From a virus, in the UHGV virus genome UHGV-0117537: DNA of 34,981 bases. The stretch is one strand, 5' to 3'. The position numbers and the translations under genes were made by a program. The stretch's first letter is position 1, and each line of letters starts with the position of its first letter. This document shows, one piece after another, positions 10-27,951 of this stretch. Below the pieces are notes generated by a model, which was given only the letters and a program-made list of their open reading frames with translations, was not told the DNA's origin and made no database searches.

Positions 10-29
10 TTGTGTACATTTGTACACAA
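10..29. promoter_or_regulatory. Perfect 9-bp inverted repeat (ttgtgtaca-tt-tgtacacaa) just upstream of the TetR-family gene; candidate autoregulatory operator
   Basis: Perfect palindrome read directly from the sequence about 20 bp upstream of the ATG at 50; TetR-family regulators commonly bind palindromic operators overlapping their own promoter. Confidence 0.5.
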
Positions 30-49
30 TTGCAGACAGAGGAAATGAC

Positions 50-586
50 ATGCGTCGCGCTAACGATCCGCAACGGCGAGAAAAAATTATCCAGGCCACG
101 CTGGAGGCGGTGAAACTTTACGGAATACATGCTGTTACGCACCGCAAAATTGCTACCCTTGCCGGGGTACCGTTGGGATCGATGACCTACTATTTTTCAG
201 GAATTGATGAGTTGTTGCTGGAGGCGTTCAGCAGTTTTACTGAGATTATGTCCCGGCAATATCAGGCATTTTTTAGCGATGTTAGTGATGCTCAAGGCGC
301 ATGCCAGGCTATCACCGATATGATCTACAGCTCACAGGTTGCAACGCCGGATAATATGGAGCTGATGTACCAGCTCTACGCGCTGGCTAGCCGAAAACCG
401 CTATTAAAAACGGTAATGCAAAACTGGATGCAGCGCAGTCAGCAAACGCTCGAACAATGGTTTGAACCCGGAACCGCCCGCGCGCTTGATGCGTTTATTG
501 AGGGGATGACGCTGCATTTTGTCACCGACCGTAAGCCGCTATCGCGCGAGGAGATTTTGAGGATGGTTGAGAGGGTTGCAGGGTAG
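50..586 (+). CDS. rcdA: TetR-family transcriptional regulator, RcdA/YbjK-like (host gene)
   Basis: ORF 20-586 (TTG-extended); internal ATG at 50 gives 178 aa; N-terminal HTH region ([37 protein letters not shown]) typical of TetR family; protein recalled as RcdA-like from memory. Confidence 0.8.
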
Positions 587-687
587 TAGATAAATTTTAG
601 ATAACAAAAAACCCATTTATGTAAACTGATTAATGAAAACAATAAGTTAGAGTAAAAACAATAAGTTGGGTTGGTGGTCAGTGGTGG
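587..687. other. Candidate prophage left attachment junction (attL) with two direct copies of aaaacaataagtt (possible integrase arm sites)
   Basis: AT-rich spacer between host gene stop and 3' end of integrase gene; direct repeat aaaacaataagtt occurs twice about 19 bp apart; position adjacent to int matches P2-like attL architecture. Confidence 0.4.
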
Positions 688-1743
688 TTATGACGGGGTA
701 ATGCCAACCGCTGCCGCCACTTTGTCGCCACTTGGCAGCGTTGCCAGAGGATTGAAACGGAGCGCCGTTTCCAGATGATCCGGTGCCAGATGTGCGTAAC
801 GCATAGTCATTTTTATATCGTGGTGTCCGAGAATTTTTTGTAAGGCCAGAATGTTTCCACCCGACATCATGAAGTGCGCCGCAAACGTATGGCGCAGAAC
901 GTGTGTGAGTTGACCGCGAGGGAGCACGATAGACGTTTTTTCCATTACGGATAAAAATTGAAAATAGCAGTCTGTGAAGAAATTGAATCCATCAAGCGCC
1001 ATGATCTCTTCATAAAGCTCTTTACTGATAGGGATGCTTCTGTTTTTCTTTCCCTTCGTTCTTACAAAGGTAATTCGGTATTTAGTCACCTGTGATCGGG
1101 TAAGGTTTATTGCTTCTCGCCAGCGTGCGCCTGTGCTTAAGCATATCTTGACTACCAGCGCCAGAATTGGGTCCTGACGTTTGCAATCAGCCAGCAGTTC
1201 AACAATCTGCTCATGGGTAAGCCATGCCATCTCTTTTTCTGCGATGGTGAATTTTCGCATGTTCTCCAGTGGGTTTGGATACGACCATTCGCCCAGGCGG
1301 GATAGTTCGCTAAAAACACTACTTAGATAGCTTTGCTCCAGGTTAATGGTGACCGGGCTGGCTCCTTTCTTCCATTTCTCGCTGAAGTAGATCTCACCGG
1401 TCAGGCGTTTATCTCGATAGTGGGCAAACATTTTAGAGGTGAGATTGGTTGCAAGAGGATTGCCTAGAGCGTCAACCATCAGCAGCAATTTGTCATAGAC
1501 ATGCTGCCCAGCAGTCAGAGATTTACCATGTAATTTGAACCATAGCTCAACCACGTCTTTCAGGGTTCGACGATCCACTGATTCGCCCAGCCAGGGCTTT
1601 GATTCGGTTTCTTCCATCGTGTGACGCTCAAAAGCCAGAGCTTCGCCTTTGGTGGCGAATTGTTTACGCACACGACGCCCACTTCGTCCGGCGGGGTAAC
1701 ATTCGCAAAGCCATTTCCCTGTGGTGAGTTTTCGTACTGCCAT
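688..1743 (-). CDS. int: Tyrosine-family site-specific integrase (P2 Int-like)
   Basis: 351 aa; N-terminus MAVRKL..GRSGRRVRKQF and C-terminal catalytic region HVLRHTFAAHFMMSGGNILALQKILGHHDIKMTMRYAHL with terminal tyrosine motif typical of phage integrases. Confidence 0.93.
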   Translation of the reverse strand: MAVRKLTTGKWLCECYPAGRSGRRVRKQFATKGEALAFERHTMEETESKPWLGESVDRRTLKDVVELWFKLHGKSLTAGQHVYDKLLLMVDALGNPLATNLTSKMFAHYRDKRLTGEIYFSEKWKKGASPVTINLEQSYLSSVFSELSRLGEWSYPNPLENMRKFTIAEKEMAWLTHEQIVELLADCKRQDPILALVVKICLSTGARWREAINLTRSQVTKYRITFVRTKGKKNRSIPISKELYEEIMALDGFNFFTDCYFQFLSVMEKTSIVLPRGQLTHVLRHTFAAHFMMSGGNILALQKILGHHDIKMTMRYAHLAPDHLETALRFNPLATLPSGDKVAAAVGITPS

Positions 1744-1813
1744 AAAAAAGCCCTCATATCAGAGGGCTAAATTTAACTGTATATTTGACCAGTAGTCAAT
1801 GTATGGTTTTTAC

Positions 1814-3802
1814 TTAAAAAACATTCTTATCCCCGTGGAAAAAACGTGCAACGTTCAATAGCCAGTCGGGGGTTTTTATTTCATTTGAATTTGCTAGTAT
1901 TTCTAAATATTTTTCGCAAAATTCATTTTTTTTTCCTGGTAATTCGAAATAATCCTCAATAGCTTTTTTTTCTGTAATGTTAAGATTCAAAGCGCCTCCC
2001 GATACTGAAGACTCCATTAACTGTGGGGTTTCCATAAAGGACAAACTAGTTTCTCCTTTAGTGTAAAGCATTTTCAGAGTTTCTACGTAGAAATCAGCAT
2101 TAAGAGACTGCTCAATTTCTGTAGGTGGATAAACTCGATCATCAGTAACTTTAACAAGGCTTATATTAGATAAGTCTTTATCGAGCAAGAGTCTTCTTAT
2201 TTTTATACTTGGTATTGTATCTGTAGCATCATATGGACTATATTTGTGATCTGTATCTAATAATAATAATACTTTTCCTGAGATTGTTGCTTTGCGATCC
2301 TCTAACGCCATAACGAGTAAATTATATATTTTTTTTACTGTAGGGGAGCCACCGACGGATAAAACTATTAGTTTCTCAATGTTTTCATAATCCAAGTGAG
2401 CGGAAATATATTTTCTATCAGTTTTTCCTTCGCACAATATCCAGTTATAATTATTTCCAGATGTTATTGAATAAACAATTGATTGTGCTAAGTCGTGATT
2501 GCTTTTCATTTCTAAAACGTCAAGGCAAGAGCCATTTGACTCTTTTGCTAGTTCCTTTAATTCATCCTTGTAGTTTTCCAGATCGAGTGCTTTGATGTAT
2601 GTTTGAGAGGGGGAAATATATATGGCTGTACCTGAGCCTGTAACAGGTAAAAAACCATACCAATGAGTTGTACAAATAGTCTGTATGCCTAGGTCGCTAA
2701 TTTTTTTTATTTTATCAAATTGATTAAAACATGATGTGGCATGTAAGGATAATTCAGGTTCATCAACAGCAAGAATTGTTGAGTGCTGAGATTTTTGTGG
2801 ATTATGTTTTAAGAAATTGGTAGCAAGATCTAGCAATGCTTTTCTTTTTTCTCCTGAGCTTAAATTTTGCACAGGGGTATCTTTATTAACATCATCAATA
2901 TGATGTAATATTTTATCACTAAAATATGATTCAATTATTTTAGATATCATATGACGTTGAGTGAAACTATTTTGTCGCTGAGATGGTTTTTTAAATTGAT
3001 ATCGCCCCTCAAGCTTTGTAGTTAATTGTCTAATAAAATCATTTAAGTGCGAATTTATTGCTGTAATATCCTTTTTCTTAATGATTTTACTGATTTTTTG
3101 TTGGAGATTTTCACCTAATAAAGACTGTAATAAATCGCTTTCAATCCTTGAGTATTCGGATGTGGTTATTTCTGCAGGTAGGTAAATATAATTATAGATA
3201 TCCTTAATTGTTATTAATAGCTTAGGTAGTATATTGTTAAAATGATATTTTTTATTATTCGTCGAACTATTTTCATTTGCGAGATCATCAATTTGCAATC
3301 GATAATCATCTATAGATTCGAAAATTGACATGTAGGGGCGAGGAATATCATTTGCAGTTTCTTTTATTATCCCAAGGGGAATTAATAAATATTCATCTGA
3401 AGAATATTTGTATTCTAGTTGCTTCCTGTGTGATATAAATTTCTCAGCTATAGGACGTTGCAATGTATTAAAAACTTCACTTTCTATTTGCCAAGTGATA
3501 TCGCTTACGATTTCTAATGCTTTGTATAGGGAATTATTTATCTTTAGCTTGTTTTTATTTATTAAATAAATTGGCACAATGAATGGTTCTCGAGTATCGA
3601 AACCTTGACTGCGCGCTTCATTGTTGATATCAAGTCTATTGATATCAGTTTTATTTAGTACAATATCTAATGCTTGTAATATTGAGCTTTTCCCGACACC
3701 ATTTTCACCAATGAGCCAAGAGGATTTATTGTTTAAAGTGAGTGGGATATAATGTTGATTTTTGAAATTCTTGAAATTTCGTAAAATAACACCAATAATC
3801 AT
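1814..3802 (-). CDS. OLD-family ABC ATPase-TOPRIM nuclease-like protein (class 1 OLD-like; fused PARIS-like not excluded); candidate anti-phage defence cargo
   Basis: 662 aa; Walker A GENGVGKSS near N-terminus, ABC signature LSSGEKR, Walker B/D-loop ILAVDEPELSLH, H-loop TTHW, then C-terminal TOPRIM-like motifs ILCEGKTD and LLLDTD; gene visibly AT-rich relative to flanking phage genes; sits between cI and int. Confidence 0.65.
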   Translation of the reverse strand: MIIGVILRNFKNFKNQHYIPLTLNNKSSWLIGENGVGKSSILQALDIVLNKTDINRLDINNEARSQGFDTREPFIVPIYLINKNKLKINNSLYKALEIVSDITWQIESEVFNTLQRPIAEKFISHRKQLEYKYSSDEYLLIPLGIIKETANDIPRPYMSIFESIDDYRLQIDDLANENSSTNNKKYHFNNILPKLLITIKDIYNYIYLPAEITTSEYSRIESDLLQSLLGENLQQKISKIIKKKDITAINSHLNDFIRQLTTKLEGRYQFKKPSQRQNSFTQRHMISKIIESYFSDKILHHIDDVNKDTPVQNLSSGEKRKALLDLATNFLKHNPQKSQHSTILAVDEPELSLHATSCFNQFDKIKKISDLGIQTICTTHWYGFLPVTGSGTAIYISPSQTYIKALDLENYKDELKELAKESNGSCLDVLEMKSNHDLAQSIVYSITSGNNYNWILCEGKTDRKYISAHLDYENIEKLIVLSVGGSPTVKKIYNLLVMALEDRKATISGKVLLLLDTDHKYSPYDATDTIPSIKIRRLLLDKDLSNISLVKVTDDRVYPPTEIEQSLNADFYVETLKMLYTKGETSLSFMETPQLMESSVSGGALNLNITEKKAIEDYFELPGKKNEFCEKYLEILANSNEIKTPDWLLNVARFFHGDKNVF

Positions 3803-3822
3803 TTTTTGTCCTTTAAAATTAA

Positions 3823-4413
3823 TTATTTACAGGTCATAATCACTTTAGCGATGATATTAACATCACTGATATTGCACTCTATTTTTTTTGATTTTGACTC
3901 TAGCATTATGCGGTTATTAGGTAACCTCATTAATTCTCGAACAGAATATATACCGTCAATGGCAATCAACCATAACCCATCATCAATCTCATCCACACCT
4001 CGTCTCACGACATAAGTTATATGCTCATGCTCAAGAGCTGAGATATCTTTTAGGTCATTTGGCAATAGTGATAAATCAAAAATTAAATAGCCATTATCAA
4101 TCAGTTTGCCATCGATAATTTTCTCTCTGGTCAGGCTTACAACATGCGATTTTGCATCCACATACATGGGGCCTTCAGCTGCGGATAGCCAACGAAGTGA
4201 AATACCTGTTTCTAACGCACATTGAATTATCCAATCAGCGGGGAATGTATCTCTCATATATCGATTAGCTAACGTGCTTTTAGAAACACCAAGATGTTCA
4301 GCCAAAGCCTGTCGTGTCGTAAAGCCATAAGCTTCGACTAATCGCTCAATCGCAGCCTTACCACCTTTATTGGGATTTATTTTGATCTCACTTGGGTACT
4401 TTGATGTTGACAT
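3823..4413 (-). CDS. cI: Prophage immunity repressor, 186 CI-like (HTH N-terminal domain)
   Basis: 196 aa; N-terminal HTH (FTTRQALAEHLGVSKSTLANRYMR); divergent from Apl/CII-like genes; size matches 186-type CI rather than 99-aa P2 C. Confidence 0.75.
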   Translation of the reverse strand: MSTSKYPSEIKINPNKGGKAAIERLVEAYGFTTRQALAEHLGVSKSTLANRYMRDTFPADWIIQCALETGISLRWLSAAEGPMYVDAKSHVVSLTREKIIDGKLIDNGYLIFDLSLLPNDLKDISALEHEHITYVVRRGVDEIDDGLWLIAIDGIYSVRELMRLPNNRIMLESKSKKIECNISDVNIIAKVIMTCK

Positions 4414-6336: not shown

Positions 6337-6563
6337 TGGCTGATGCAATGGATCTCGTACAGCAGCGAGTTGAAGAAGAACGCCAGCGTCATATCCGTGC
6401 TGCCCGTGCCAAAACGCCGGGCGTGTCCCGCGTGCTTTGCGTTGAGTGTGAAGCGCCAATTCCGCCAGCACGCCGCCGTGCCATTCCGGGTGTGCAACTT
6501 TGCATTACCTGTCAGGAAATCGCAGAGCTGAAAGGCAAACATTACAACGGAGGTGCTGTATGA
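6336..6563 (+). CDS. TraR/DksA-family C4 zinc-finger protein (P2 orf82-like)
   Basis: 75 aa with CxxC...CxxC (CVECEAPIPPARRRAIPGVQLCITCQ) characteristic of TraR/DksA zinc fingers found in P2-like early operons. Confidence 0.75.
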   Translation: MADAMDLVQQRVEEERQRHIRAARAKTPGVSRVLCVECEAPIPPARRRAIPGVQLCITCQEIAELKGKHYNGGAV

Positions 6564-7417
6564 GCACCATCCTGAAATGGGCGGGAAATAAAACCGCCAT
6601 TATGTCCGAACTGAAAAAACATCTTCCTGCTGGTCCGCGACTGGTTGAACCTTTCGCGGGTTCCTGTGCAGTGATGATGGAGACGGATTACCCCAGCTAT
6701 CTTGTTGCGGATATTAATCCTGATTTAATCAACCTCTATAAAAAGGTTGCTGCTGATTGTGAGGCGTTTATATCTCGTGCCAGAGCTTTATTTGAGGAAG
6801 CAAACAGAGAGGTGGCTTATTACAACATAAGGCAGGAGTTTAATTACTCCACTGAAATTACTGATTTCATGAAAGCGGTATATTTTCTGTATCTCAATCG
6901 TCATGGTTACCGTGGGTTATGTCGTTATAACAAGAGCGGGCATTTCAACATTCCATACGGTAATTATAAAAATCCGTATTTCCCTGAAAAAGAAATTCGC
7001 GCATTTGCAGAGAAAGCCCAGCGAGCAACGTTTATCTGCGCCAGCTTTGATGAAACGCTGGCGATGCTGCAGGTGGGGGATGTGGTGTATTGCGATCCGC
7101 CTTATGACGGTACGTTTTCCGGCTATCACACTGATGGTTTCACTGAAGATGACCAGTATCACCTGGCATCTGTTCTTGAATATCGATCATCAGAAGGTCA
7201 TCCAGTCATTGTTTCTAACAGTGACACATCCCTGATCCGTTCGCTGTATCGAAATTTCACTCACCACTACATCAAGGCAAAACGCAGCATCGGCGTGTCG
7301 GCTGGCGAGAGTAAATCTGCAACAGAAATCATTGCTGTTTCCGGGGCGCGCTGCTGGGTGGGATTTGATCCTTCGTGTGGCGTGGATAGTTCTGCTGTGT
7401 ACGAGGTGCGTGTATGA
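6560..7417 (+). CDS. dam: DNA adenine methyltransferase (Dam-like, N6-adenine)
   Basis: 285 aa from internal ATG of ORF 6500-7417; N-terminal KWAGNK and FAGSCAV (AdoMet-binding) motifs and catalytic DPPY ([12 protein letters not shown]). Confidence 0.85.
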
Positions 7418-9980: not shown

Positions 9981-10169
9981 ATGCAGGACTATTTTTTGGA
10001 GTCTTTGAAGCTTCAGCGCATTGATTTTTTTCTTAAGCTTGTAGCGGCTAGTGAGTGTAGTGATGAAGAGAAGGGGCTGGCTCTGCAGTGGGTTTCTGAA
10101 TTGACTGATGAACTTATGGCAAAAATCAGAAGTCACGAATACAACCGCTCAATGGATGTCATCAGCTGA
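9981..10169 (+). CDS. Small SOS-controlled protein (possible N-terminal part of a Tum-like antirepressor)
   Basis: 62-aa ORF preceded by AGGAGG RBS and the LexA box; immediately followed by the DinI-like ORF. Confidence 0.5.
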   Translation: MQDYFLESLKLQRIDFFLKLVAASECSDEEKGLALQWVSELTDELMAKIRSHEYNRSMDVIS

Positions 10170-10179
10170 GGTGACTTTT

Positions 10180-10413
10180 ATGCGCATTGAAATAATGATC
10201 GATAAAGAGCAGAAGATTAGCCAGTCTACCCTGGACGCCCTTGAATCCGAGCTTTACCGCAATCTGCGCCCCCTGTATCCCAAAACGGTAATTCGCATTC
10301 GCAAAGGTAGCTCTAACGGTGTGGAACTAACCGGACTGCAACTGGATGAAGAAAGAAAACAAGTGATGAAAATTATGCAGAAGGTGTGGGAGGACGACAG
10401 CTGGCTGCATTAA
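10180..10413 (+). CDS. DinI-family protein (Tum C-terminal-like / DinI-like)
   Basis: 77 aa from internal ATG of ORF 10108-10413; MRIEIMIDK...SWLH resembles DinI family (MRIEV... start, acidic C-terminus). Confidence 0.75.
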   Translation: MRIEIMIDKEQKISQSTLDALESELYRNLRPLYPKTVIRIRKGSSNGVELTGLQLDEERKQVMKIMQKVWEDDSWLH

Positions 10414-10605: not shown

Positions 10606-10941
10606 TTACGAATGATCATTCTGTTTAGTCTTCATGAGAAAATCCCGAATCTTTGCCAAGTTTGAATTTTCGGGGATTGAATCCATGTACGGATCACGCT
10701 CAAACACTAATTGCTCAGATTCAACGAAAGCCTGCCACTCTACTGGGTCTAGCTCAAATCCCATTGCTGTCATATCACTTTCATCTTCCCCCTCGATCCA
10801 GTGGACTAAATAAAACAATTCATCATCAGGAGAATCATCCTCACCATCAACAATATCAACATCGGTTACAGTGATACGTAGGGTGGGATCGATTTTTGAG
10901 ACATAAATTCCTAACTGTGGTATAGGGGGAATATTGTTCAT
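10606..10941 (-). CDS. Hypothetical acidic protein (orphan, accessory)
   Basis: 111-aa ORF on opposite strand to surrounding genes; strongly acidic (runs of D/E: DGEDDSPDDE, EGEDESD); no family recognised. Confidence 0.45.
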   Translation of the reverse strand: MNNIPPIPQLGIYVSKIDPTLRITVTDVDIVDGEDDSPDDELFYLVHWIEGEDESDMTAMGFELDPVEWQAFVESEQLVFERDPYMDSIPENSNLAKIRDFLMKTKQNDHS

Positions 10942-11415: not shown

Positions 11416-13155
11416 ATGGAATTGCACGCATATACTAGAACCATATCAGAATTACTTTCGGTTAATAGAAAATATGTTGTCCCAAGATTTCAGCGAGAAT
11501 ATTCTTGGGTAAAAGAACAAATTAATGAGCTTTGGTATGATGTAATATCTAATATCAAATTAGAGAATGATTTCACATATTCTAATAATGAGTATTTTAT
11601 TGGTTCTTTAGTTTTAGTTGGAGATGAAACAGGAAGGGAAATGCAAATAGTTGATGGTCAGCAACGACTTACAACTCTTACGATTTTTCTTTCCGTTTTA
11701 TGTGAGGCGTTCAAGCTAAACAATCAATCAGATTTAGCATCTGCTCTATTTGAAAATTATATTGAAGGTCGTGATGATGATGGTAAGAAATTTTTTAAGC
11801 TAATAAATGAAACACCTAAGCCTTTTTTTCAGAAAAATATCCAACACCTTAATAAGGCAGATGACGCACCCCAGACACAAGAGGAGCGAAATCTCTTGTC
11901 TGCATATAAGGAAATTACATCGTTAGCCTCAAAGGAAAAATTGGGAAAGCATTTTTCAGTCGAAATTAATACTGAAGATAATTATTCCAGTGTATTAAAA
12001 GCAATTAGGGATCAGATTTTAAGATTTCTTAAGATAATTTTTATTACTGTTAATGAAGAGGACGAGGCGTATACAATATTTGAAACATTAAATGCGAGAG
12101 GGATGAATTTAAGTTTTGTAGATCTAATTAAAAATAAATTATTTAAAGCGTTAAACAACCCTCATCCAAATGATGATGCAAAAGATAATTGGAAGGCTAT
12201 ACGTACTACTTTAATGCAAAGAAATGGTGTAGGGACTTTTGAAAATTTCATGAGGCACTGGTGGGTGTCGAAGTATGCTTACGTGAGCAATGAAAATCTT
12301 TATAAGTCCTTTATTGGAAAATGGCGTAAGGGGGAAATTAATCCGGTAACCTTTATTGAAGAATTGAAACAGGATGCCGAATTGTATGTACGCTTGTCAT
12401 CTCCTTTGGAGAGTGATTATCCACAAATGGAAGATAAACAGATATTCCATTCGTTGAATGCAATTAGGCTATTTGGTATAACGCAGTGTAGACCTTTTTT
12501 ATTAGCTTTACTAAAGGCAAAACAGCAAAGGAGATTGCGTCAATGTGATCTTTTAAAAGCAGTTAAATATATTGAAAATTTTCATTTTGTATTTAATGCG
12601 ATATGTTCATTAAGGCCGTCAGGGATAGAAGGTGCATATTCTAAGGCCGCAAGAGCAATAAATTCACCAAATGCTACAAAAGTAACTAATGGTACAACAA
12701 TTGAACAGTTATGCTTGTTGTTGAGTAACCGCAAGCCAGAAATTTCTGTATTCACTGAAAATTTCAGAGATATATTATTTACTGATGACAACTCCAAGCA
12801 AAAAAGATTGGTCCAATATATTATAAATAAATTTGAAATGGCCCGTCATAATGGAGATGAGTATCGTCCTAATTCTATTTCTTTAGAGCATATAATGCCT
12901 CAAAGTGCTGGCAACGATAAGGAAATAGGAATGATTGGAAATATAATCCCTCTGTCAAAAGAACTTAATGAGCAAGCTGGTAATAAATCATTGGCACAAA
13001 AGCTCTCTATCTATTCACAATCGGAGTTTAGATTGACGGAAGAGTTTATTAGTGAACTTGAAACCATTTACCATAATGAATGGAATCTCCAGTCTATTAT
13101 TCAGAAGACAGATAGAATGGCTGGTGAGGCTTATATGAATATTTGGAGTCATTAA
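11416..13155 (+). CDS. DUF262/DUF1524 (GmrSD/BrxU-like) type IV restriction endonuclease-like protein; candidate anti-phage defence cargo
   Basis: 579 aa; N-terminal DGQQR motif (QIVDGQQRLTTL) diagnostic of DUF262/ParB-like NTPase domain, C-terminal His-Me/HNH-like motif (ISLEHIMPQS) of DUF1524; markedly AT-rich; located between replication gene and portal gene. Confidence 0.72.
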   Translation: MELHAYTRTISELLSVNRKYVVPRFQREYSWVKEQINELWYDVISNIKLENDFTYSNNEYFIGSLVLVGDETGREMQIVDGQQRLTTLTIFLSVLCEAFKLNNQSDLASALFENYIEGRDDDGKKFFKLINETPKPFFQKNIQHLNKADDAPQTQEERNLLSAYKEITSLASKEKLGKHFSVEINTEDNYSSVLKAIRDQILRFLKIIFITVNEEDEAYTIFETLNARGMNLSFVDLIKNKLFKALNNPHPNDDAKDNWKAIRTTLMQRNGVGTFENFMRHWWVSKYAYVSNENLYKSFIGKWRKGEINPVTFIEELKQDAELYVRLSSPLESDYPQMEDKQIFHSLNAIRLFGITQCRPFLLALLKAKQQRRLRQCDLLKAVKYIENFHFVFNAICSLRPSGIEGAYSKAARAINSPNATKVTNGTTIEQLCLLLSNRKPEISVFTENFRDILFTDDNSKQKRLVQYIINKFEMARHNGDEYRPNSISLEHIMPQSAGNDKEIGMIGNIIPLSKELNEQAGNKSLAQKLSIYSQSEFRLTEEFISELETIYHNEWNLQSIIQKTDRMAGEAYMNIWSH

Positions 13156-25821: not shown

Positions 25822-26262
25822 ATGAAATATTTGTATGTTGATAATCTGGCGTACCCTTATGCCCTCCAGTCTGTTTACGCTGCAAAAGGCCAATGGCCCG
25901 AAGGTAAAGGCGTGGATATAGACGAAGCTATTTTCAGGGAATATTTCCATGATACGCCGCCTGACGGTAAGTACAGAATTACCGGAGACGATGGAATGCC
26001 AGCATGGGCAGATGTTCCACCGCCAACACGTGAAGAACAAATTGCATCAGTCGAAACTAAAAAGCAGCAATTGATTAATCAGGCCAACGATTATATGAAC
26101 AGTAGACAATGGGCTGGTAAAGCGGCGATTGGTCGCCTGAAAGGTGAGGAACTGGCGCAATATAATTTGTGGCTGGATTATCTGTACGCACTGGAACTGG
26201 TCGATACTTCCGGTGCGCCAGATATTGAATGGCCTACGCCTCCGGCAGTTCAGGCCAGATGA
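25822..26262 (+). CDS. G: Tail fibre assembly chaperone (P2 gpG/Tfa-like)
   Basis: 146 aa; N-terminal MKYLYVDNLAYPY and C-terminal GAPDIEWPTPP typical of Tfa proteins. Confidence 0.8.
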   Translation: MKYLYVDNLAYPYALQSVYAAKGQWPEGKGVDIDEAIFREYFHDTPPDGKYRITGDDGMPAWADVPPPTREEQIASVETKKQQLINQANDYMNSRQWAGKAAIGRLKGEELAQYNLWLDYLYALELVDTSGAPDIEWPTPPAVQAR

Positions 26263-26836
26263 CGTCCGGCGCTGTGCTGGTATCTGTTGCCGTCACCACG
26301 TCAATGTAATCCAGCACAGTGTTAAGGCGGGTTGTTTCTGCCTGCGTCAGCTTCCGTCCGGCCTGTAATTTCAGTTGAATCAGACTGATGGAGGCCATTG
26401 CAGTATCAATCAGCGACTGGCGCTGTGCTTCTGCTGCATCTACTGCTGCGCCGTGCTGTGCCTCAGTATCGGTCACCCATTTCTCACCATCCCATTTATC
26501 GTATGGCGTTAACGGGGCGATAGTGGTTGTATTTTCAGGGTAATCACCCGGAGTTGTGATTTCTTTGGCTTCTCCCGTTTCGGTGTTATAGACGATTTCA
26601 CCGCGATGGTCTGGCACATATTCCCATGAGTTAAAATCTGCAGAACGGCAGATAGCATAACCAGCCTTATATGTGCCTGGTGAATCTAAACAGGAATATG
26701 CCGGGATACCAACACCAACGGCAAGATATTCATTTGAAGTGGAAATATATTCCCGTATTTCACCATCATAGTTATAGACGGTAATATTCCCTGCCTTCGT
26801 GGCAATAATCTCGCTATTTAATACAGCGTTATCCAT
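26234..26836 (-). CDS. Alternative tail fibre assembly chaperone (Tfa'), inverted orientation
   Basis: 200 aa on opposite strand; C-terminus TAPDVIWPELPEA parallels the Tfa C-terminus on + strand. Confidence 0.7.
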   Translation of the reverse strand: MDNAVLNSEIIATKAGNITVYNYDGEIREYISTSNEYLAVGVGIPAYSCLDSPGTYKAGYAICRSADFNSWEYVPDHRGEIVYNTETGEAKEITTPGDYPENTTTIAPLTPYDKWDGEKWVTDTEAQHGAAVDAAEAQRQSLIDTAMASISLIQLKLQAGRKLTQAETTRLNTVLDYIDVVTATDTSTAPDVIWPELPEA

Positions 26837-27329
26837 TATGCAGCCCTCACAATATAATTAAAGGCAATGTTACGTGGGCGGTTCTCATTTGCGGTTGGGA
26901 CAACGGCTGAAGCATTAAAATTCGCATACAGGGAGCGTTGATACCCGGATGCTGATGCACCACTTAATGCGGGAGCTTTTGACTCCGAAGCCGAAAAGGC
27001 CCCTGACACGTATCCTAATAACCCTTGTGAATCGCCAATTGAACTGTAGCCAACCACCCCGGTAATGTTTCGGATAGCATCTCCTTGTGCTGAAAGCAGA
27101 GTTCGCCCACTATCCACTCCCTTTCCACCATCCCAGCCACGAATAAACTCACCGCGTAAATCAGGCAATTTTAACGTCGGGTAAGCCTTTGCCAGATTAG
27201 GGTAATCTTCAGCAGAAAAAGCCGCACCGTTGCATTTCAGCCAGCCTGTTGGCGGTGTGGCTGAAGGCCATGGAACAGGCACACCAACAGGCAGCGCAGA
27301 GCCTTCCCCTAAACCAACGTTTAAGAAAA
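26836..27329 (-). CDS. Alternative tail fibre C-terminal (variable) segment, promoterless until inversion
   Basis: Minus-strand ORF 26836-27357; shares LGLGE junction (FLNVGLGEGSALP) with H at the crossover site; the 5' end of the ORF upstream of the site is not expected to be translated. Confidence 0.6.
27304..27329. repeat. Hix/gix-like recombination site (right boundary of invertible segment), inverted relative to 25473-25498
   Basis: ttcccctaaacc-aa-cgtttaagaaaa; its reverse complement (..ggtttaggggaa) matches the right half of the site in H (ggtttgggagaa). Confidence 0.55.
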
Positions 27330-27384
27330 TGCAGAGAAAATGGCTAACTGGCATCATCCCCGGTTTTTATTCAGGGGATTGATC

Positions 27385-27951
27385 ATGCTTATTGGCTATG
27401 TACGCGTGTCAACAAATGACCAGAACACCGATTTGCAACGTAATGCACTGAACTGTGCGGGATGTGAGCGGATTTTTGAGGACAAAATCAGTGGCACTAA
27501 GTCCGACAGACCGGGACTGAAAAAACTGCTCAGGATACTATCGGCAGGAGACACGCTGGTTGTCTGGAAGCTGGACAGGTTGGGGCGCAGTATGCGGCAT
27601 CTTGTTACGCTGATAGAAGAGTTACGCCAGCGTGGTGTGAATTTCAGAAGCCTGACTGACAGTATTGATACCAGTACCCCAATGGGCCGTTTCTTTTTTC
27701 ATGTCATGGGTGCCCTGGCTGAAATGGAACGCGAACTGATAGTTGAACGTACCAGGGCAGGGCTGGCTGCAGCTCGTGCCAAAGGCAGAGTAGGTGGACG
27801 CCGTCCTAAGTTGACCACCGAACAGTGGGCACAGATTGGGCGTTTACTCGAGGCCGGAGAATCAAGACAGCGTATTGCACTGATTTTTGATGTAGGCGTT
27901 TCTACCATTTATAGAAAATTTCCGGCAAATAAGATCAATGAATCCCCCTGA
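27385..27951 (+). CDS. Serine recombinase, DNA invertase of the Hin/Gin/Pin/Cin family
   Basis: 188 aa from internal ATG of ORF 27340-27951; N-terminal catalytic motif MLIGYVRVSTNDQNTDLQ with active-site serine, C-terminal HTH. Confidence 0.9.
   Translation: MLIGYVRVSTNDQNTDLQRNALNCAGCERIFEDKISGTKSDRPGLKKLLRILSAGDTLVVWKLDRLGRSMRHLVTLIEELRQRGVNFRSLTDSIDTSTPMGRFFFHVMGALAEMERELIVERTRAGLAAARAKGRVGGRRPKLTTEQWAQIGRLLEAGESRQRIALIFDVGVSTIYRKFPANKINESP

Follow-up and report, generated by a model that had tools for sequence, protein, structure and literature searches.

What is the role of an AT-rich gene that stands between the repressor and the integrase gene of a P2/186-like prophage, and does it contribute to the defence of the lysogen against other phages? 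The question is raised by the virus genome UHGV-0117537, a stretch of 34,981 nucleotides referred to here as the window, which is a complete P2/186-like prophage of Escherichia coli and harbours an open reading frame (ORF) for a protein of 662 amino acids (aa). The best explanation is, with a probability of about 0.7, that this gene encodes a stand-alone nuclease of the OLD family, which is exchangeable cargo of P2/186-like prophages and most likely serves the defence of the lysogen against other phages. What has been established is how the domains are arranged, that catalytic residues are conserved, that the gene stands alone, that it is rare and replaceable, and where in the operon it lies.

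The gene in its prophage

The prophage is inserted between the host genes rcdA (20..586) and ybjL. A locus of E. coli CE0021a is 99.8% identical to the window, and RefSeq annotates the early, replication, capsid, lysis and tail modules there as usual. On the minus strand, the CI repressor gene (4413..3823) is followed by the 662-aa ORF (3802..1814) and subsequently by the integrase gene (1743..688); the opposite strand carries an apl-like ORF and then a cII (CP76) gene, an arrangement like the 186 switch. The genes and the regions of the 662-aa protein discussed below are the following:

1814..3802, minus strand: gene of the 662-aa stand-alone OLD-family protein (ABC ATPase plus predicted TOPRIM nuclease), based on ORF and translation, AAA_15, the PADLOC Old model, hhalign to P2 Old, and an AlphaFold (AF2) model with Foldseek
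3823..4413, minus strand: 186-type CI repressor gene (PF07022 2.6e-30, PF16452 3e-23), first gene of the lysogenic transcript, covarying with the cargo
688..1743, minus strand: tyrosine integrase gene (Int_N 2.4e-32, Phage_integrase 6.9e-22), downstream of the cargo on the same strand
2618..3802, minus strand: ABC ATPase region, residues 1-395 (Pfam AAA_15/AAA_21/SMC_N over residues 1-380)
2903..3175, minus strand: helical insertion, residues about 210-300, at the site of the OLD-protein dimerisation domain (helices in the AF2 model)
2102..2455, minus strand: predicted TOPRIM core, residues about 450-567 (E458-x3-D462, D516-T-D518, T561, E564)
1829..2101, minus strand: predicted C-terminal helical bundle, residues about 568-658, with invariant K625 and W647 (secondary structure of the model, pLDDT >88)

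An earlier note on this DNA had placed the gene between repressor and integrase on the same strand, had quoted a full motif set for it and had called it strongly AT-rich against a prophage of about 50% GC, all of which is borne out. The Pfam matches identify cI and int on either side, and all motifs are located in the translation, namely GENGVGKSS (31-39), LSSGEKR (314-320), ILAVDEPELSLH (343-354) and TTHW (378-381), followed in the C-terminal half by ILCEGKTD (455-462) and LLLDTD (513-518). The GC content is 0.28-0.34 over the ORF compared to 0.45-0.55 in the flanks, and amounts to 0.313 over the whole cI-int interval. The ORF starts with ATG, with AAGGA upstream at 3809..3813; plus-strand ORFs of 43-53 aa within 1814..3802 were taken as chance ORFs in AT-rich DNA. 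RefSeq labels the protein 'AAA family ATPase' (WP_032286372), and some of its relatives are already called OLD-family endonucleases in IMG and UniRef.

An ABC-type ATPase in the N-terminal half

A profile-HMM search matched residues 1-380 to AAA_15 (E 4.9e-21; 76 bits, cut-off 32), AAA_21 (1.7e-12) and SMC_N (2.5e-9), in agreement with the ABC ATPase motifs recognized beforehand. Conservation was counted, here and below, in an alignment of 46 homologues reaching down to 32% identity. Invariant in 46/46 are Walker A G32...K38-S39, Q226, the signature SSGE at 315-318, the Walker B/D-loop residues D347-E348-P-E350 and H380. The assignment of the N-terminal half to the ABC-type ATPases is far beyond chance, and Walker A, signature, Walker B/D-loop and H-loop are all present. 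In the AF2 model, long helices (214-238, 243-263 and 282-296) are inserted between the ATPase lobes, with a pLDDT of only 55-81 in this part.

A predicted TOPRIM domain of the OLD type in the C-terminal half

For the C-terminal half, family-level and structural evidence supports a predicted TOPRIM domain of the OLD type. The OLD-like TOPRIM family PF20469 is reached individually by 20/46 homologues (best E 7e-6). A profile-profile comparison (hhalign) aligned the family to P2 Old with a probability of 98% (E 1.7e-13), columns 240-488 of the family corresponding to residues 212-440 of Old. This alignment runs from the ATPase signature region into the start of the TOPRIM domain and places ILCEGKTD opposite LLVEGKTE. 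In the equivalent comparison with E. coli YbjD all three TOPRIM motifs are aligned, a weak similarity with E 9e-5 and a probability of 59%. Tests of the single C-terminal sequence gave nothing significant: RT-Toprim models of PADLOC matched at 1e-4 to 2e-3, the sole Pfam match besides PF20469 is a chance Cadherin hit, and phmmer against the PDB was without result; the profile of the C-terminal domain against P2 Old alone was not significant either.

Structure prediction points in the same direction as the profiles. The full-length AF2 model (pLDDT 84.9, pTM 0.81) has full-length OLD proteins as its top Foldseek matches in the PDB, namely GajA (1.7e-13), the retron-Eco8 effector (1.2e-12) and Thermus OLD (3e-11), with alignments to GajA and Thermus (Ts) OLD of about 700 columns, and the OLD-family architecture that had been proposed from the motifs is recovered.

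In Thermus OLD, the catalytic set consists of E377/D431/D433 at metal A and D381/S478/E480 at metal B, with the basic R487 as the equivalent of K562 in Bp OLD (PMC7049728). The 662-aa protein has putative conserved counterparts of this two-metal set: E458, D516, D518 and E564 are each present in 46/46 homologues, position 462 is D in 37 and E in 9, and position 561 is T in 45 and S in 1. The spacing T561...E564 is one residue off S478-x-E480 of Ts OLD. R537 and K625 are invariant candidates for the basic residue. A structural trait of class 1 is not seen, as position 7 after E564 has no basic residue. Equally, K625 as the candidate basic residue would lie in a predicted helical bundle of about 90 residues after the TOPRIM core, which is a trait of class 2, and the C-terminal region aligns over 159 residues to class 2 Bp OLD versus 132 residues to class 1 Ts OLD.

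An exchangeable slot between repressor and integrase

Among complete E. coli genomes, 1,153 of 5,426 match the flanks of the query and 8 of these carry this gene; a more sensitive search found any member of the family in 13 of the 5,426 genomes, with the ORF intact in all 13 (annotated as CDS, not as pseudogene). The occupancy of the slot was assessed in 60 of the 1,153 matching records, sampled at even spacing. The OLD gene was present in 1 record, a DUF4041/'SNIPE-associated' gene in 8 and a KAP/P-loop NTPase gene in 2, while 7 records have another gene, which is frameshifted in the one locus examined (L005). No large cargo gene is present in 27 records (L004, the locus examined, has an ORF of about 63 aa), 4 carry cargo in an int-att slot instead, and 11 match int only. 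For DUF4041 proteins, a role as anti-phage effectors has been validated (PMC9519451; also the SNIPE preprint). All slot occupants examined are AT-rich (GC 0.31-0.37). In the reference phage 186, cI and int overlap by 1 nt, and in P2 a gap of 115 bp separates C and int; in the window, the variable interval consists of one ORF only. The suspected variability of the slot is thus evident from related E. coli prophages, and the same flanks with different genes of atypical composition are found, as is characteristic of cargo in a defence hotspot.

The exchanged unit appears to be larger than the cargo gene. Homology with related prophages restarts about 13 nt past the stop codon of the 662-aa ORF. 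Among the prophages at the rcdA site, Int is 97-100% identical compared to only 31-54% for cI (31-62% when window 3823..4413 is compared with loci L003, L004, L005, L006 and L015). The window cI is nearest (62%) to the cI of Klebsiella, which is likewise followed by an OLD homologue, and in comparison with the cI that precedes DUF4041 its N-terminus is near-identical and its C-terminus different. As Int is near-identical while cI is divergent, and as the window cI is closest to the OLD-preceding cI of Klebsiella, the exchanged block would appear to be cI plus cargo and not the cargo alone.

The position had also been proposed to be a less-studied cargo site, a suggestion that is too strong in view of published precedents. 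Phage K139 has the order cI-orf2-glo-int on the P_L 'lysogenic operon', with Glo annotated as 'involved in phage exclusion'. In K139-like phages, Rousset et al. (2022) described the interval from cI to int as a hotspot for defence (PMC9122126), and a survey from 2026 assigned 8% of P2 defence systems to the integrase-primase interval. K139 and the K139-like hotspot have the same design as the locus in the window, in which the lysogenic transcript of a P2-family phage carries cargo for exclusion or defence between cI and int. Glo, however, is a small protein of the periplasm with no relation to OLD, and whereas the published cI-int hotspot belongs to phages of Vibrionaceae, the same design is seen here in 186-like prophages of E. 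coli, Klebsiella and Serratia.

A second variable slot, located between int and the attachment site, was observed in related prophages at the rcdA site. It holds a DUF4917, a DUF2971 or a Panacea-domain protein with its partner, the latter being toxin-antitoxin-like (L007 527..1510, L008 777..1529, L009 432..1660); the equivalent interval of the window, 587..687, is empty.

Probable expression with the repressor, and the int leader

Two short elements on either side of the gene bear on its expression:

3803..3822, minus strand: spacer of 20 nt from the cI stop codon to the cargo start codon, with the Shine-Dalgarno sequence AAGGA, lacking a terminator and too short for a promoter
1744..1799, minus strand: int-leader element, a promoter-like box, hairpin and T-run that abut the int ATG and are shared by 8/8 related loci

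A scan of the minus strand from 3803 to 4413 found neither a terminator nor a consensus promoter, and cI and cargo are joined just as closely where the slot is filled by other genes. An internal promoter of the cargo gene was considered and rejected, as the consensus scan gave 19 sites versus 15.4 expected and matches in the AT-rich ORF are at chance level. Given the gap of 20 nt, the AAGGA, the lack of terminator and promoter and the same junction elsewhere, co-transcription with cI is the simplest reading, and the cargo is likely expressed from a cI promoter of the pL/pE type.

The int leader consists of a promoter-like sequence TTGACT-18-TAAATT at 1799..1770, found by the scan and common to the related loci, a 7-bp G+C-rich hairpin AGCCCTC-TGATAT-GAGGGCT at 1768..1749 and a T-run at 1748..1744 that ends at the int ATG, with the int Shine-Dalgarno sequence GAGG inside the 3' arm of the stem. 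Changes of the stem between lineages are compensatory (one double change of A-U to U-A, one single change of G-C to G-U), and the RNA fold has -19.9 kcal/mol with a z of -2.9. The element forms the int-side edge of the variable region. Judged from these features it looks like a terminator/attenuator or a translational lock on int. The picture of a gene embedded in a cI-int operon is therefore retained in part: the gene is probably transcribed together with cI, but int is preceded by a conserved hairpin with T-run that resembles a terminator. If this hairpin restrains int, the 'cI-X-int operon' reads as 'cI-X expressed, int restrained', which fits a defence gene expressed in the lysogen.

A small and mostly fused family

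An exhaustive search with the C-terminal profile among 1.84 billion representatives recovered only 383 proteins at E<=1e-3, most of them of 630-700 aa with the domain at about 390-650, and the family is small and mostly fused. A tblastn search against 50,697 phage genomes, P2 included, gave no match at 1e-3, so that the family is found in no isolated phage at that sensitivity. A second E. coli allele (66% amino-acid and 72% nucleotide identity) is present in E. coli C4 (L026 5722..7704) and four other E. coli genomes, and fills in E. coli C4 the same cI-int slot behind a different, longer cI of 311 aa. Homologues in Klebsiella (72%) and Serratia (58%) again show the order cI-X-int. A homologue in an Aeromonas P2-like prophage (62%) lies in the classical gpA-portal 'old/tin' hotspot, one in V. 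cholerae (37%) in a lambdoid prophage and one in Pectobacterium (81%) in an integrase-bearing island adjoining another AAA_15 gene pair; chromosomal loci occur in Pseudomonas and Aeromonas. Whatever the host, the OLD homologues are rich in AT, such as the one with a GC content of 0.33 within an Aeromonas locus of 0.62. In Pectobacterium parmentieri (L019 8179..10889), the homologue is located 1.2 kb upstream of a 532-aa AAA_15/AAA_21 ATPase, followed by a 369-aa protein without Pfam hits; these two may be a separate two-gene defence system.

OLD proteins are assigned to classes by their neighbourhood, class 1 being single genes, class 2 occurring with a UvrD-like helicase (Gabija), class 3 in retrons and class 4 in PARIS (PMC10568477). 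As had been stated for the window, the gene is single and without helicase partner: in ten contexts from seven genera no recognisable or recurring helicase, reverse transcriptase or separate TOPRIM partner was found. The single-gene context indicates class 1, and the TOPRIM domain plus the helical bundle with K625 a class-2-like C-terminal architecture. A retron of type I-B (class 3 OLD) was considered and rejected, as the neighbours are cI and int and the window has no Rfam match; Rfam families and tRNA genes were both absent from the window. We tentatively entertain the idea, which is at present rather doubtful, that the family of about 380 clusters is a distinct OLD branch, an autonomous single gene with a class-2-like C-terminus and its own trigger and substrate, and that, in addition, 186-like cI and cargo are swapped jointly as an 'immunity plus defence' cassette, bounded by the int-leader hairpin, with cI and cargo on in the lysogen and int low.

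Relation to tested OLD proteins

The closest tested relative by profile is P2 Old (AAD03309), which shares with the 662-aa protein the single-gene combination of ABC ATPase and TOPRIM domain as well as the character of non-essential, lysogen-expressed cargo of a P2-family prophage; the PADLOC Old model matches at 9.7e-18. The two proteins are, however, just 23% identical, and this within the ATPase only; P2 Old has 586 aa and lacks the extra C-terminal helical bundle of the 662-aa protein, and it is located with tin in the gpA-portal hotspot under its own promoter, whereas the 662-aa gene follows cI. P2 Old is active once RecBCD is inhibited and cuts the anticodon stem of tRNA-Thr(UGU) (PMC12445682); this trigger and this substrate are features of P2 Old and are not transferred here to the 662-aa protein. 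The class 1 protein Vc OLD of Vibrio cholerae nicks DNA and stops the replication of ICP1, for which ATPase and nuclease residues are required (PMC12392090). Vc OLD is likewise a stand-alone OLD protein on a mobile element, which alone restricts phages and behaves as abortive infection (PMC12392090), but resides on a phage defence element adjoining DarTG instead of the lysogenic operon of a prophage. E. coli YbjD/OldB, also of class 1, is equally a stand-alone E. coli OLD protein with which the TOPRIM motifs align; the Toprim domain is not required for YbjD's phenotype (PMC13261556).

Weighing the explanations

Several observations weigh against a defensive OLD nuclease in the window. A single-sequence Pfam search of the C-terminal half matched PF20469 only at E 0.014, with 16.3 bits below the cut-off of 23.2. 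The profile of the C-terminal domain found no solved structure among PDB sequences, the only match being a chance VapC hit at E 0.54, and Foldseek with the domain alone gave weak matches (E about 1e-2, TM 0.4-0.5). The TOPRIM-like domain that had been read from the motifs is hence not recovered by Pfam from the single sequence; with the single-sequence and PDB profile tests non-significant, its assignment rests on the 20/46 relatives that reach PF20469, on the full-length profile alignments such as that with P2 Old, and on the fold comparison. Equally, the exhaustive search with the C-terminal profile did not reach canonical OLD, GajA or AriB, and this, together with the lacking PDB match, suggests a divergent branch whose activity may differ. 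Furthermore, the consensus scan did not detect a promoter of the pL type, DNA of 31% GC can be subject to H-NS silencing in E. coli, and a literature search found no paper that mentions WP_032286372.

Two alternatives accept an OLD-type protein and assign it to another system. A fused PARIS, with AriA and AriB in one polypeptide, where the ATPase senses an anti-restriction protein and the AriB-type TOPRIM domain cleaves host tRNA, had been named as an option in the earlier note and is highly improbable. The AriA matches are confined to the generic AAA_15/AAA_21 region of residues 1-380, and DUF4435 (PF14491), the signature of PARIS, gave no match to the C-terminal half at E<=10 and matched 0/46 relatives at E<=0.01, as compared to 20/46 for the OLD TOPRIM; it is the failure of this DUF4435 test that argues against PARIS. 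P2 Old, in addition, is aligned over the ATPase-TOPRIM junction, and no genuine split, AriB-like form was seen in the exhaustive domain search, the members being fused. Two short hits were examined and rejected as split forms, one being a contig-end fragment and the other a gene split on a contig of 1.9 kb that has 2.6x coverage. A tRNA substrate would be compatible with PARIS, yet equally so with P2 Old. On similar grounds it is rather improbable that the gene is an orphan of the Gabija type (class 2), which has lost its UvrD-type helicase partner or borrows it from the host and acts like GajA as a nucleotide-sensing DNA nickase. GajA nicks DNA upon nucleotide depletion. A GajB/UvrD-like helicase gene, the neighbour of GajA and class 2 OLD proteins (e.g. 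8U7I, 6NK8), is beside a family member in none of the ten contexts, the PADLOC GajA models match only residues about 2-97, the P-loop/Walker A region, and the nearest tested relative by profile is of class 1.

A role outside anti-phage defence, as a silent or decaying passenger in H-NS-silenced AT-rich DNA or as an ATPase in the biology of the prophage itself, such as DNA maintenance or addiction, would be consistent with the great rarity of the gene (13/5,426 E. coli genomes), with non-defence or Toprim-independent roles of some OLD proteins and with the low GC content, which suggests possible silencing. Such a role is nevertheless unlikely, as the ORF is intact in every E. coli genome that carries it, and as no catalytic residue of ATPase or nuclease varies among homologues down to 32% identity, an indication that activity is under selection. 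Moreover, the gene is met again in hotspots for defence on unrelated mobile elements, and in other prophages the slot is filled by defence genes that have been validated. A stand-alone OLD nuclease in the service of the lysogen hence remains the preferred explanation, and the 662-aa protein is a divergent and rare OLD protein of a known sort.

A possible mode of action

From family and context we infer an anti-phage function, most likely defence, together with a trigger and a substrate. One polypeptide would combine an ABC ATPase with an inserted helical domain of the dimerisation type, fused to a TOPRIM two-metal nuclease and a helical bundle. The lysogen would produce the protein from the repressor (pL-type) transcript via its own ribosome-binding site in the short spacer past the cI stop, and the conserved hairpin with T-run after the cargo would limit read-through into int or its translation. 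By analogy with the tested OLD proteins, the dimeric ATPase may hold the nuclease off until another phage infects, upon which the TOPRIM site would be freed, by binding or hydrolysis of ATP, to cleave nucleic acid. The substrate might be phage DNA, nicked as by Vc OLD, or host tRNA, as for P2 Old and AriB, both being equally compatible with the evidence. Infection would be halted, probably with loss of the infected cell.

Additional features of the prophage

The gpA-portal ('old/tin') hotspot of the same prophage carries, at 11416..13155 on the plus strand, the gene of a 579-aa GmrSD-type protein (GmrSD_N 1.2e-38, GmrSD_C 2.4e-15, PADLOC HEC-06 1e-92), which looks from these matches like a second defence cargo resembling type IV restriction. 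Beside it are a DinI-like gene (10108..10413) and a 111-aa ORF (10606..10941, minus strand) without hits. In the early operon, immediately upstream of the replication endonuclease gene, lies a DNA adenine methylase gene (6500..7417, plus strand), for which the DNA of the prophage itself is a possible target; this methylase may be relevant for self/non-self discrimination by the two nucleases of the prophage. At 26152..27911 of locus L017, and at about the same coordinates of the window, opposed tail-fibre and tail-fibre-assembly genes adjoin a recombinase-family gene, an arrangement that resembles an invertible segment for host range where P2 has its Z/fun hotspot.

Implications

The locus extends current views and overturns none; it provides a good experimental candidate and no surprise. 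Tests for phage defence exist for only three class 1 OLD proteins (P2 Old, Vc OLD, YbjD), and these disagree in substrate (tRNA or DNA) and in the need for the Toprim domain. The 662-aa protein would be a fourth, sequence-divergent member, predicted to be naturally expressed in the lysogen, and would offer a tractable test case in E. coli for trigger and substrate. Furthermore, the cI-int slot of 186-like prophages in E. coli behaves like the hotspot of the K139 type in Vibrio and carries validated systems such as SNIPE, which makes it useful for the mining of defence genes.

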